Below, piece by piece: positions 15,001 to 18,000 of a stretch of 64,000 nt of DNA (positions are counted from its first letter, which is position 1; every line of letters starts with the position of its first letter). This DNA is from a candidate division WOR-3 bacterium. Lineage in GTDB: Bacteria; Hydrothermota; 32-111. Made by a program: the position numbers. The DNA lies in assembly GCA_039804105.1 (NCBI GenBank), contig JBDRZU010000001.1, positions 704,001 through 768,000 of the forward strand, read 5' to 3'.

Positions 15001-18000
15001 AGCTTTTCTTGGCAATATTTTTCCTCTATCGTTTATAAATTTTGATAAGAACTGGATATTTTTATAATCTATTTTTTCTTTTCTGGTACAAAGCTTACAA
15101 ACTTTTACCTTTTTTGCACCATTTCTTGAATCTGAAGAACCGTTGTTCTCTTTAGAATGGAATGGACTCATCAGTACCTCCGTTTTCAATTTCTTCTATT
15201 TCATTAAAATCTTTTTCTACATCATCTATTATCTTATCATAGGAAACATCATTAACTTCACCTTCAAGGTCAGAAACTTCTCTTGATAAAAAGTAGATCT
15301 TTGTTGCTCTGATCTGAAAGGAAACCTTTTTTTCATGTGTTCTCTTATCCTCATAATTGTTCGCTTCAAGAGATCCTTCGACTATCACAGGTGTTCCAGT
15401 TTTCAATCTCTTTTCAAGATTATCTTCAAATTTTGTAAAATATGATACACTGATAAAAAGTGGATTATCTTTCCATTCTCCATTTTTGTCCTTATATCTT
15501 CTTGAAGATGCAAGACGAAAACCAATTACACCGGTATTATCTGATGTGTACCTTTTCTCAGCATCCTTTGTTACTCTTCCAGCGATAATGATTCTATTTA
15601 GATTCGGAAGGTTTATTTTTTCACCCATTTATACCTTCACTTCATCATTCTTTTTAATCATATATCTCCATATTGTTTCATCAAGTTTTATTTCTCTTCT
15701 GAGTTCCTCAACTTTCAATGGATCGAGGTTAAAGTTTATCAAAATAAAATGCCCTTGAGCAGTTTTGTTTATTTCGTATGTAAGTTTTTCAATACCTTTA
15801 TCCTCTACATTTTCAACTTTACCTGCAAGTTCCTCAATCCATTTTTTAAAACTGGAAATCCTTTCTTCAAGAACTTCCTTAGATAATGTAGGATCATAGA
15901 TGATCAAAATTTCATAGTTAACCAAAATTTCCTCCTGTTATTTTTCTTCTTTTTTATTAATTATACTCATAGATTTTTCAAATCCATTTTCAACTATTGT
16001 GTAAATATGTTCTATTCCTTTTTCTAGAACTTTATTGTAATCATCTTCTTTCATTTTTCCTAAAACAAAATCTTTATCCTTCTTTTCTTCAAACTCTCCG
16101 ATGCCAACTCTTAACCTCGCAAAATTTTCAGTTCCAAGATGGTATATTATTGACTTTAATCCATTGTGACCACCATCTGAACCTGATAATCTTAACCTAA
16201 AAGTGAAGAGTGATATATTAAAATCATCAACAATTATAAGAAGATTTTTTAAATCGATCTTATAATAGTTTAAAAACTCTACAACAGCGATTCCACTCTC
16301 ATTCATATAAGTTGTTGGAACGACTAAAAATAACCCATCTTTCAAAGAACATTCAGAAAAAAAAAGTGCCCTTTACCTGTTTTAAATTTCAACTGCTCTT
16401 TTTTAGCAAAACCAATAATGATTTCTTTTCCTATATTGTGCCTTGTCTTTTCATAAATTTTATCAGGATTTCCGAGACCAACAAGAGCAAACATATAACC
16501 CCATCACTTCTTTTCTTTCTTCTCTTTTTCTTTCTCTTTTCCTTTATCTTCTTTTTCTTCCTCTTCTTCACCCTCTTCTTTCTTTTCCCTGATGAGTTCT
16601 GGCTCTTTTGCTTCCTCTTCAGGTTTTGGTGCTTCTTCAACATACGCCTTTGGAGCAAGAATAGTCACAACAACCTCTTCTGGATTTTCGACGATTTCAA
16701 ACTTTTCAGCCTTTATATCTTTCACATGTATTGAATCACCTATTGCAAGTTCTGAAATATCAACTTCAACATGTGATGGTATGTCTGCTGGCAAACATTT
16801 GATTTCAAGATCTCTGAGAAGGTGCTCAACTATTCCACCCTCTTTAACTCCCTTTGCTGAACCTTTTAGAATGATCGGTACTGTAAGTTTCAATTTTTCA
16901 GATTTATGGATTATCTGAAAATCGATATGTAAAATTCTGTTTGTTCTAGGGCTTCTGAAAATCTCTTTTATGATCGCAAGAAAATTATCTTTTCCCATCT
17001 TAATATTTATAAGAGATTTCTCTCTTCCAATTGCGTGAAACATCTTATTCAACTCAACCTCATCGACAGAGAACAACCTGTTCTCCTCTTTGTGTCCATA
17101 TGCGACACATGGAATTTTGTTATTCTTTCTTAAGAGGGTAAGAATATGTTTACCCTTTTCTCTTTTTTCAACTGGTAAATCGTATTGAAGCATTTATCCT
17201 CCTAATCAAAAAGTGCACTGATAGATTCTTTATTATAAACTCTTTTTATAGCATTCGCAAAAAGTTCTGCCATAGACAAAACTTCTATTTTTTCGATCCT
17301 CTTCTCCTCAGGTATCACAACACTATCCGAAGTGTAAAGTTTATCTATAGGTGAATTTTTGAGTTTTGCAATAGCATCACCTGAAAGCAAAGGATGTGTC
17401 ACACATGCTATTATCCTTTTAGCACCATTATACTTTAAAGCTTCAGCTGCTTTTGTGATTGTTCCCGCAGTATCGATTATATCGTCAACCATTAAAACAT
17501 TCTTATCCTTAACCTCTCCAACAACATGCATCACTTCGGATTGGTTTGGAGAACTTCTTCTTTTATCGATAACAGCAATCGGTAGATTGTTCAGTTTTTT
17601 CGCTATATTTCTTGCTCTGTTAACTCTTCCTGCATCAGGAGAAACCACAACCGTATTGTCAAGTTTTTCGTTCTTTAAAAGATGTTCAACAAAAACTGGT
17701 GCAGAATAAAGATGATCAACTGGAACATTGAAAAAACCCTGAATCTGTTCAGCATGAAGTTCAAGTACCATAACCCTTGAAACACCCGCTGCTGTCAAAA
17801 GGTTTGCAACAACTCTTGAACTTATTGGAACCCTTGGAGCATCCTTTTTATCCTGTCTTGCATATCCATAATATGGTATGACCGCAGTTATCATATCCGC
17901 TGATGCTCTCCTCAAAGAGTCAATGATAAAGATAAGTTCAAGAAGATTATCCGCTGGTGGATTTGTTGACTGTATAACAAACACATGGCTTCCCCTTACA

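Follow-up and report, generated by a model that had tools for sequence, protein, structure and literature searches.

How does a bacterium make peptidyl-tRNA hydrolase (Pth) when the reading frame of its gene breaks at a run of nine T residues? The pth locus raises this question in the window, the stretch of 64,000 nucleotides from a candidate division WOR-3 bacterium of family 32-111 that was analyzed here and in which all positions are given. An earlier note had described a -1 break at this T9 run and a gene divided over two open reading frames (ORFs), and our reading of the frames bears this out: the 0 frame stops shortly past the run and the -1 frame continues (Table 1). Read as written, the DNA would give only a 50-aa N-terminal fragment of Pth, the product made without recoding, which ends ..KFKTGKGHFFFLNVL before the stop; the -1 frame reads ..LFFSECSLKDGLFLVVPTTYMNESG... 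A frame change of -1, or the gain of one U in the mRNA, would be required at the run, and full-length Pth would come only from the share of expression events that enter the -1 frame there. Read through the run, the protein has about 185 aa, with ..GKGHFFF joined directly to SECSLKDG... The gene stands in the row prs-ctc-pth-rpsF-ssb-rpsR-rplI, whose members downstream of pth occupy 14446..15925 on the same strand.

Table 1. Features of the pth locus and its neighbors, by position in the window.
Feature	Position	Strand	Details
prs, ribose-phosphate pyrophosphokinase	17202..18224	minus	opens the prs-ctc-pth row; Pfam PF13793, PF14572, PF00156
Ribosomal protein L25/Ctc (TL5 type)	16504..17193	minus	upstream of pth; Pfam PF01386, PF14693
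pth, 0-frame N-terminal part	16345..16494	minus	ATG at 16494; 50 codons, 46 up to the end of the run; from the ORF list
Invariant 10-codon block H-FFF-SECSLK	16340..16368	minus	CAC, T9, then TCT GAA TGT TCT TTG AAA in the -1 frame
T9 run (U9 in mRNA)	16357..16365	minus	exactly nine T on the sense strand; three 0-frame TTT codons
0-frame stop TGA of pth	16342..16344	minus	four codons past the T9 run
pth, -1 frame open stretch (rest of Pth)	15938..16372	minus	144 codons plus stop (15938-15940)
rpsF	15629-15925	minus	downstream of pth; Pfam PF01250
ssb	15152-15628	minus	downstream of pth; Pfam PF00436
rpsR	14902-15189	minus	downstream of pth; Pfam PF01084
rplI	14446-14892	minus	downstream of pth; Pfam PF01281/PF03948

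The two pieces together span the Pth profile PF01195 over its whole length. Against a Pfam cut-off of 27 bits, the first piece matches profile positions 2-39 (E 1.2e-9, 38.7 bits) and the second positions 53-183 of 183 (E 1e-39, 136.7 bits). Moreover, the -1 frame part matches 36 solved Pth/CRS2 chains at E <= 1e-10, with 4qt4_A the best at 6.5e-26. The GLGNP and TRHN motifs lie within the 0-frame part, and PTTYMNESG, VDD and GGHNG in the -1 frame part. The catalytic residues of Pth are held by four motifs (GLGNP, T-R/K-HN, D-D after the central strand, and GGHNG), and the read-through product of each of the 13/13 genomes of family 32-111 contains them all, with the break falling between the first pair and the last. 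The two pieces are the only PF01195 matches in the 1.81-Mb genome, and a profile search of that genome found no PTH2 past the threshold of 23 bits (highest score 16.3 bits), which agrees with the earlier note's claim that this locus encodes the only Pth of the cell. Across the phylum, the Pth profile is matched in 251 of 271 genomes.

The break is a property of the whole family. Two adjacent PF01195 matches occur in all 13 genomes of family 32-111, drawn from five genera, and in each of them the GLGN motif stands one frame ahead of YMNxSG, which amounts to a -1 break. The run at the break is T9 in 11 of the 13 and T10 preceded by TC in the other two (G006 and G007), always with three in-frame TTT codons, and the read-through products (181-195 aa) are colinear with Pth even though identity between genera is only 38-54%. 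The number of codons between the run and the 0-frame stop ranges from 1 to 18 according to genus; since the stop differs in position between genera, the 0-frame tail is not conserved. In the sister family, by contrast, a single unbroken PF01195 match is found in 5/5 genomes, within open frames of 190-211 aa, as the earlier note had held. The residues at the corresponding site of these intact proteins are GKGEYYFFEKN, GKGEYSCFECD, GKGEYSYFECD, GKGEYYYFSKG and GKGSYYYFSKR, and the break in family 32-111 falls within an FFF that aligns to their YYFF or YYYF. A strict pattern scan of the genome contigs gave six matches, every one of them pth with the break; the same scan of metagenome sequence gave 17 matches, four of which are pth, and all four carry it. 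A search with the 50-aa N-terminal piece returned eight short clusters only, which is no measure of its spread.

The break is not confined to this family, and to that extent the view of it as a trait of family 32-111 needs amending: it is constant within the family, but it is not unique to it, given a second site in the same phylum and a published case in Blochmannia vafer (PMC3017870). In a second family of the phylum, pth is broken by -1 at an A9 run in 5/5 genomes (two genera), at about profile position 73-80 and hence at another place in the gene than the T9 site. The four Pth motifs are again present, with small variants, in all five read-through products. All that the two sites have in common is a homopolymer of nine bases and a frame that needs one more base, and sequence comparison shows that the A9 site arose independently of the T9 site, by convergence. 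An independent second site in the same gene suggests that the arrangement has a use, for example in dosage setting or feedback, because a homopolymer that a single insertion could revert would otherwise not stay broken. The broken-and-recoded state is presumably advantageous. The best explanation, we think, is that the broken pth is the ancestral state of family 32-111 and has been kept by selection, beyond mere tolerance.

Substitution patterns indicate that both halves of the gene, and the run itself, are constrained. For the N-terminal part dN/dS is 0.05-0.41 and for the C-terminal part 0.05-0.24 in 19 of 21 within-genus pairs, the N-part dS not being computable in the other two, with dS reaching values above 1 and synonymous sites nearly saturated within genera. 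Both halves are thus under purifying selection, to judge from these rates. At the nucleotide level, 42 degenerate codons are invariant in their amino acid; only four of these are identical in all 13 genomes, and three of the four are the TTT codons of the run, in loci where TTC makes up 11-49% of the Phe codons. The coding sequences thus show the run to be kept under selection as nucleotides. The His codon that precedes the run is CAC in 6/6 genomes, although CAC accounts for 19% of His codons; the use of CAC in place of the common CAT, which would lengthen the run, points to selection on run length. Within genus g1 the constraint reaches further, since a block of 10 codons around and after the run is identical in 5/5 species, and the 18 bases past the run are unchanged. 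Of the 105 degenerate codons whose amino acid is invariant in this genus, just 40 are identical, yet these 10 are consecutive. Thirteen bases of the block, GTTCTTTGAAAGA, are also kept in genus g5.

Taken together, these observations make it very probable that pth is obligatorily recoded, by whatever route; expression of the gene would then proceed across the run. The earlier note had argued for conserved recoding as opposed to an error or a pseudogene, and the dN/dS values, the retention of the run at the nucleotide level and the lack of an in-frame version among the sequences compared support it. As to the route, the sequences incline us to transcriptional slippage, in which RNA polymerase adds one U, over -1 ribosomal frameshifting; slippage is probably the main route, a judgment we make with some reserve. 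In this model, the RNA-DNA hybrid of a polymerase copying the A9 template would be filled by rU:dA pairs, so the RNA could realign without mismatch. The outcome would be a mixed pool of mRNAs, in which U10 (one U added) or U7 (two U lost) would carry the intact pth frame. Slippage would also be expected to yield proteins with FF or FFFF at the junction, for example GHFFFFSECSLK at +4 U, and such FF and FFFF variants would arise only from the polymerase.

Several features of the site agree with slippage. A homopolymer of about nine bases or more lies exactly at the frame change (T9/T10 in 13/13 genomes, A9 in 5/5), and the run and the broken frame are both conserved among orthologues under purifying selection. 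Indeed, the run is the only element common to all 13 genomes; the flanking bases differ, and the next 0-frame codon is variously CTG, GTG, GTA/GCA, GTT or GCG/GCT. Folding the 70-base flanks of the run, upstream and downstream, against shuffled sequences in 18 genomes gave no consistent stable or conserved structure (z-scores -1.65 to +1.33 downstream and -2.19 to +1.01 upstream), and an Rfam search over 15500-17300 returned no match at E <= 1. The length of the run also argues for slippage rather than frameshifting: it is never below nine in either family, although a heptamer suffices for the ribosome.

The genome-wide distribution of A/T runs leans the same way. Runs of 7, 8 and 9 bases number 3287, 1094 and 100 in genome G000, and in five relatives 9-base runs are 4- to 10-fold fewer than 8-base runs. 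According to a part of Baranov 2005 (PMC1088944), selection against A/T runs sets in at nine bases in many bacteria, and the sharp drop at this length in the present genome and its relatives leans towards slippage, with the proviso that the threshold derives from the polymerases of E. coli and Thermus, not from that of this organism. The genome holds 114 A/T runs of at least nine bases (63 T and 51 A on the plus strand), 92 of them inside long open frames. If the polymerase slips often at all 92, many genes pay, an observation that weighs against slippage. Among the 114 runs there were five candidates for a gene split at a run, and pth is the only one that proved to be so. The others were set aside: one, before fusA, is a terminator-like hairpin with T9, another lies in-frame in a signal peptide, a third is an intergenic A9 and a fourth is a gene junction. 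Runs of 7-8 bases gave a further 216 candidates, which resemble ordinary junctions between genes.

The strongest rival, which we regard as possible and the less likely of the two, is programmed -1 ribosomal frameshifting, acting alone or together with slippage. Here the mRNA would stay U9, and ribosomes whose P and A sites both hold tRNA-Phe over U_UUU_UUU would slip back one base and go on with UCU GAA. The in-phase heptamer that this calls for is present throughout, as U_UUU_UUU in 13/13 genomes and as A_AAA_AAA in all five of the second family; any 9-base run contains an in-phase X_XXY_YYZ heptamer. A ribosomal -1 shift would give the same protein. In addition, each of the 13 genomes has the 3' end of the run at a codon boundary of the 0 frame, a constancy explained by shared ancestry and the FFF residues. 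A further point is the suppression of synonymous variation over the six codons past the run in genus g1, where the block, with the 13 bases common to g5, could be a spacer plus a downstream stimulator, needless for slippage. No such stimulator is family-wide, however; the folds on both sides are ordinary, the site has no Rfam frameshift element, and the sole upstream Shine-Dalgarno (SD)-like bases belong to the GKG codons, found in the unbroken sister family as well. The run length of at least nine in 18/18 genomes exceeds what the ribosome needs, and the selection on length indicated by CAC would matter more to a polymerase than to a ribosome. It is therefore the polymerase, more than the ribosome, that we infer to do the slipping.

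A true split gene, whose two ORFs would be translated separately through internal re-initiation to give polypeptides that assemble into an active Pth, is very unlikely. Possible restart codons do exist: an ATG lies 2-3 codons past the A9 run in the -1 frame of all five second-family genomes, overlapping the 0-frame stop as ATGA in three of them (one genome retains the Met at a place shifted by a single residue), and a TTG lies four codons past the run in genera g1 and g5 of family 32-111. In that family, however, a start codon has no conserved place, and genome G005 lacks one altogether until the Met within YMN. None of the candidate restarts at the junction has an SD-like motif ahead of it; a TTG nine codons past the run in G043 has GAGG upstream, which we take as chance. 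The -1 frame is open, and reads as conserved Pth sequence, right from the run, and the break falls inside the aromatic stretch shared with the intact sister proteins. Furthermore, re-initiation would not explain why, in two independent cases, a 9-base homopolymer stands exactly where the two frames meet.

Scarcely credible is a reading without recoding, by which the break would reflect faulty sequencing or assembly, a pseudogene in decay, or a phase-variable DNA tract that is OFF here while ON cells supply the activity: error and mutation concentrate at homopolymers, the genome under study is a 2-contig assembly scored as 85% complete, and one contig from a public run (X2) ends at the run, but the identical break in 12 other assemblies (20-330 contigs each) and in independent metagenome contigs, the low dN/dS on both sides, the lack of another Pth and the status of pth as the sole gene so split all oppose it. 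Public runs with these bacteria are labelled as hot-spring and similar metagenomes. None of the runs listed with the locus is recorded as RNA. Among contigs from public runs, X3 bridges the T9 with 0 differences and X1, which may itself have given rise to the DNA studied, is identical; X2 starts at 16355, short of bridging the run, and is uninformative either way. A further match, X20, from a run guessed to be RNA but probably DNA, covers 15800-16005 only, with lower likeness and off the run. We rejected a pseudogene on the dN/dS of 0.05-0.41, on the single lesion per gene and on the absence of any other Pth or PTH2 in the genome searched. A phase-variable contingency locus was likewise rejected, as no length polymorphism between in-frame and out-of-frame alleles appeared among the genomes and contigs: at the contig level, none of the 13 + 5 genomes of the two broken families, and none of the four pth-bearing metagenome contigs, has an in-frame allele. 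Every consensus thus has the "OFF" length and, with Pth reported to be essential for bacterial viability in the part of PMC3488237 that treats it, cells with the broken frame must be the viable majority.

What use the arrangement might have is a matter for speculation. It is conceivable, if doubtful, that the homopolymer acts as a feedback sensor of Pth itself, much as the UGA of prfB senses RF2. If Pth ran short, tRNAs would become locked up as peptidyl-tRNA; ribosomes would pause, their A site vacant, at the UUU (Phe) run here and at the AAA (Lys) run in the second family, and the P-site tRNA would slip by -1 more often, yielding more full-length Pth. It fits such a sensor that two families independently reached a homopolymer of a single-tRNA codon in pth, with Blochmannia as another instance. 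The defect of E. coli pth(Ts) mutants is reportedly linked to tRNA-Lys, in work of Vivanco-Dominguez from 2006. Should the idea be correct, a translation factor that is both essential and universal would have a new autoregulatory recoding circuit, located in the prs-ctc-pth-rpsF row.

Whatever the route, a Pth that can be made only through a slip at a homopolymer, and that has been kept so over family-level divergence, would join the short list of obligatorily recoded chromosomal genes, as a housekeeping gene outside eroding endosymbionts. Pth is also studied as an antibiotic target. Public annotation lists these genes as ordinary short CDSs of 126-135 aa, under the name "aminoacyl-tRNA hydrolase"; the recoding has been missed, with consequences for completeness and pathway calls in the phylum.

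Among known systems, E. coli prfB resembles pth in that the full-length product of an essential translation factor gene depends, in many genomes, on a change of frame at a conserved site within the gene. In prfB the shift is a +1 ribosomal one at a UGA stop, helped by an SD-like stimulator upstream, and it is a proven feedback sensor of RF2, whereas in pth it is -1 at a homopolymer and no stimulator was found around the site. The -1 sites of E. coli dnaX and IS elements, described in sections of PMC4066793 and PMC3711429 as A_AAA_AAG and relatives, share the direction of the shift and an in-phase X_XXY_YYZ heptamer of A or T; the efficient cases given there have an upstream SD-like sequence and/or a downstream stem-loop, neither of which was found conserved at pth. 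A further known system is dnaX of Thermus thermophilus, which undergoes transcriptional slippage on A9 according to the account in part of Baranov 2005 (PMC1088944). There, too, a 9-base homopolymer sits in a housekeeping gene; the polymerase makes a mixed mRNA whose frames differ past the run with no further signal needed, as we propose for pth. The difference, on that account, lies in the role of slippage: in Thermus the unslipped mRNA encodes the full-length protein and slippage adds a shorter product, while in pth the unslipped mRNA would encode the 50-aa fragment and slippage would be needed for the one functional product.

Literature searches joining pth with programmed frameshifting, or GeneTack with peptidyl-tRNA hydrolase, returned nothing relevant, and one joining peptidyl-tRNA hydrolase with transcriptional slippage returned only the Blochmannia paper as relevant. 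Neither pth nor peptidyl-tRNA hydrolase is named in the first two thirds of the Atkins 2016 review, nor is pth in the main texts of PMC4066793 and PMC3711429 (Antonov 2013) or in two of the three supplements of the latter. The nearest published case, judged on the relevant passages of Williams & Wernegreen 2010 (PMC3017870), is pth of the ant endosymbiont Blochmannia vafer, in which a poly-A/T tract carries a one-base frameshift. As those passages relate, the gene is otherwise intact and free of accelerated evolution, and transcriptional slippage was proposed as its rescue. The eroding endosymbiont genome has eight such genes in all, B. vafer is alone among the three genomes compared in having a frameshifted pth, and the authors allow for recent erosion. 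The likeness, within the same passages, is that of the gene and of the homopolymer break. What sets the present case apart from that description is that pth is here the single such gene, that its break is fixed across five genera, and that a second site has arisen by convergence.

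The peptidyl-tRNA hydrolase gene pth is split in this genome into two overlapping open frames that meet at a run of nine T, within a one-strand gene row of prs, L25/Ctc, pth, rpsF, ssb, rpsR and rplI. The sequence, the ORFs and a Pfam profile search agree exactly with the -1 break that the earlier note had described here: the Pept_tRNA_hydro profile PF01195 aligns by positions 2-39 with the first piece and 53-183 with the second, the latter also being matched by 36 solved Pth or CRS2 chains at E <= 1e-10. These two pieces are the only PF01195 matches in the genome (1.81 Mb, 2 contigs), and the archaeal-type PTH2 profile gave nothing in it over the cut-off (best score 16.3 bits against 23), which bears out the further claim that the cell has no other Pth. 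The neighbouring L25/Ctc protein ends in a long low-complexity tail rich in Glu and Lys; positions 16502-16575 were treated as repeat, and hence skipped, when contigs from public sequencing runs were aligned.

Features of the pth locus and of other sites named in the text (window coordinates unless stated)
Feature	Position	Strand	Remark
pth start ATG	16494	minus	opens 0 frame reading MFALVGLGNPDKIYEKTRHNIGKEIIIGFAKKEQLKFKTGKGH up to the run
T9 run	16357-16365	minus (A9 on plus)	three Phe codons in 0 frame
0-frame stop TGA	16342-16344	minus	four codons past the run
-1 frame open stretch	16372 to stop at 15938-15940	minus	from the run onward: FFSECSLKDGLFLVVPTTYMNESG..
Ten conserved codons, H-FFF-SECSLK	16340-16368		identical in 5/5 species of the genus
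Invariant bases past the run	16340-16356	minus	CTGAATGTTCTTTGAAAGA
L25/Ctc C-terminus	16504-16600	minus	..EEGEEEEEKEDKGKEKEKEKKEKK
Hairpin, then directly T9	C1:12027-12075 (same contig, outside the window)		GC-containing, gcccatttatcaatgggc; just upstream of a fusA-like gene

The break is a property of the whole 32-111 family. In all 13 of its species genomes (five genera, g1 to g5) the frame of the GLGN motif is one ahead of that of the YMNxSG motif, which amounts to a -1 break; the two motifs are 173 or 176 bases apart. Eleven genomes have T9, and both of genus g3 have T10, the preceding codon there being TCT; everywhere the run supplies three TTT in the 0 frame and ends on a 0-frame codon boundary. 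Its surroundings vary: the codon before is CAC, AAG, GAA or TCT, the 0-frame codon after is CTG, GTG, GTA, GCA, GTT, GCG or GCT, and the 0-frame tail runs for 1 to 18 codons. The read-through Pth would have 185-195 aa, with an identity between genera of only 38-54%. These 13 genomes make up the entire order, to which the class adds a sister family whose pth is a single unbroken match in 5/5 genomes (open frames of 190-211 aa), reading GKGEYYFFEKN (with an in-frame T7), GKGEYSCFECD, GKGEYSYFECD, GKGEYYYFSKG or GKGSYYYFSKR at the site; the contrast that the earlier note had drawn between the two families therefore stands. Six places in 185,579 species genomes fit a strict pattern of GxG codons, a single codon, T9, a gap of 30-60 bases and codons for T-Y-M-N, and each is a pth of the 32-111 family with the -1 break. 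Of 17 places that fit a slightly looser pattern in a metagenome collection, four are pth, each with T9 and broken -1, and one of these is a variant absent from the 13 genomes; the remaining 13 were unrelated sequence. Neither the 13 genomes nor these scans yielded an in-frame version of the family's pth.

Selection also acts on the nucleotides of the run. Among the 42 degenerate codons whose amino acid is invariant across the 13 genomes, four are identical everywhere, including the three TTT of the run, in loci where 11-49% of the codons for Phe are TTC. In 6/6 genomes of the window's genus (g1) and of g2 the run follows the His codon CAC, which accounts for only 19% of His codons in the long ORFs of the window's genome; CAT in its place would give T10. 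Ten consecutive codons, from the His codon through the run and past it, are identical in all five g1 species, where 40 of 105 comparable codons are identical genus-wide, and the 17-18 bases past the run (also in loci L004, L011 and L014) are invariant in these species despite near-saturated synonymous sites. This block holds the near-palindrome TTCTTTGAAAGAA, its conserved TCT and TTG are minority choices (26% of Ser and 18% of Leu codons), and 13 of its bases, GTTCTTTGAAAGA, recur in genus g5. The 0-frame peptide cannot account for it, because in one g5 genome the 0 frame stops before the block, which could instead be a stimulator of frameshifting.

A convergent site extends the finding beyond the 32-111 family. 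A search of the phylum's 271 species genomes with PF01195 gave a match in 251 and two matches in only 18, namely the 13 of the 32-111 family and 5/5 genomes of a second family (two genera; G039-G043, loci L032-L041). There the break lies at profile position ~73-80, as against 39-51, and the run is nine A: the 0 frame ends ..NDL KK N L* (GAT TTA AAA AAA AAT TTA TGA), the -1 frame reads FKKKFMIKxEEILVVHDD.., and a -1 shift is needed in all five. Their TTA AAA AAA AAA codons are identical, and dN/dS values of 0.06-0.26 indicate purifying selection on both halves. Because pth is intact in 5/5 genomes of this family's neighbour, and because each genome of the families listed between the T9 and the A9 family has a single match, the two breaks are separate events. 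A pattern scan for A9 before DDxDLP codons hit 33 places, six of them pth: two split genes of the second family and four from Patescibacteria (L072, L078, L085, L095), in which A9 is read in frame as KKK at the same place and which probably represent such a site before its break. Since the second family also has an in-frame T8 at the T9 position of the 32-111 family, and one sister genome T7, both positions are naturally homopolymer-rich, and an in-frame run that then lost one base is a plausible origin for the breaks.

We consider it very probable, from the pattern of conservation, that pth undergoes obligatory recoding of some kind. As the main route we favour, with modest confidence, slippage of RNA polymerase on T9, which would add one U (or drop two) and give ..GKGHFFF-SECSLK... 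The run is the sole feature common to the 13 genomes and to the A9 site, and the choice of CAC rather than CAT beside it points to selection on run length. Ribosomal -1 frameshifting on U_UUU_UUU would make the same protein; any nine-base run contains an in-phase slippery heptamer, and the g1 block, partly recurring in g5, may speak for it. However, seven bases would suffice for the ribosome, and the run is never shorter than nine in 18/18 genomes. In the 18 genomes the folds of the 70-base flanks are no more stable than those of shuffled sequence (z from -1.65 to +1.33 downstream and -2.19 to +1.01 upstream) and have no common shape, Rfam has no match around the run, and the SD-like bases upstream are just the GKG codons, also present in the unbroken sister genes; this apparent lack of a fold, Rfam element or specific SD-like stimulator again favours the polymerase, and we hold the ribosome doubtful as the main route. 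Run counts in the window's genome (A+T, lengths 5-10: 8797+9623, 3577+4217, 1533+1754, 485+609, 45+55, 5+8) drop 2.3- to 3-fold with each added base as far as length 8, but 11-fold between 8 and 9 (1094 to 100), and five relatives from five genera have 880/105, 271/28, 443/69, 67/16 and 441/56 runs of exactly 8/exactly 9. Such a step at nine, which points to polymerase slippage, matches the selection against A/T runs evident from that length in many bacterial genomes and ascribed to polymerase slippage (Baranov 2005, PMC1088944). The same paper supplies a direct precedent, the A9 run of Thermus thermophilus dnaX, which yields a mixed mRNA population. Counting against this preference, 92 of the 114 A/T runs of at least nine in the window's genome sit inside long open frames that are unbroken. 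The choice thus lies between polymerase and ribosome, and on these sequence patterns we lean to the polymerase.

The two ORFs might instead be made separately as a true two-piece enzyme, a reading favoured in the second family by an ATG two or three codons past A9 in 5/5 genomes, in three of which it and the 0-frame stop overlap as ATGA. In the 32-111 family, however, start codons past the run occupy no conserved position, one genome lacking any before the Met of YMN, and in none of the 18 genomes does an SD-like motif precede a candidate restart at the junction (GAGG lies upstream of a TTG deeper in the G043 gene, which we take as chance). Moreover, conserved Pth residues are encoded in the -1 frame from the run onward, and two pieces give no reason for nine-base homopolymers at both junctions; internal initiation is conceivable in the second family. 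Phase variation of the run at the DNA level would predict in-frame alleles, but every consensus is out of frame in both broken families and in the metagenome contigs. A homopolymer miscall had to be weighed, since the assembly has 2 contigs and a completeness score of 85% (against 95-100% for fragmented assemblies from its genus). It is rejected: the break recurs in all 12 other species genomes (assemblies of 20-330 contigs), a contig of another public run (X3) spans T9 with 0 differences, and the contig of X1, possibly the source of the window's DNA, is identical. In addition, a screen for one frame ending and another beginning at runs of at least nine gave five candidates, among which pth is the sole split gene. 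Of the other four, one is an A9 lying between genes, one a gene junction, one a run that stays in frame within a signal peptide and one a T9 that follows a hairpin ahead of fusA. That hairpin looks like an intrinsic terminator of the preceding unit. The six database clusters closest to the C-terminal piece (67-99% identity; plain 'aminoacyl-tRNA hydrolase', 'candidate division WOR-3 bacterium') all measure 126-135 aa, so annotation has turned pth into a short CDS wherever it was assembled. A pseudogene is rejected as well, as the earlier note had argued for both, because within-genus dN/dS is 0.05-0.41 before and 0.05-0.24 after the run in 19/21 pairs (the synonymous distance of the N part not being computable in the other two) at synonymous distances reaching 1 and more, so that both halves have long been under purifying selection while broken.

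A lost T could be regained by the commonest of mutations, yet all 13 species, from five genera, are fixed for the broken state, which together with the second origin suggests that it is beneficial. The benefit might consist in nothing more than keeping the dose of Pth low and fixed. It seems to us rather improbable that the run senses Pth shortage, in which case tRNAs would be locked as peptidyl-tRNA and ribosomes, starving on a run of one-tRNA codons (Phe in the 32-111 family, Lys in the second), would slip more often.

The literature searched, which included parts of a 2016 recoding review and of the GeneTack paper, yielded no description of a conserved recoding site in pth; one may be listed in the remaining GeneTack supplement or in the 2011 disrupted-ORF pilot study. 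The nearest published case (PMC3017870) is the ant endosymbiont Blochmannia vafer, where eight genes, pth among them, have an indel within a poly-A/T tract, for which slippage was proposed as the rescue. The likeness lies in a pth frame broken within such a tract; in B. vafer, however, the break belongs to an eroding genome, was present in one of three genomes compared and, according to its authors, possibly reflects recent erosion. In pth a known mechanism, obligatory homopolymer recoding, is extended to a new gene family; the mechanism itself is not new.
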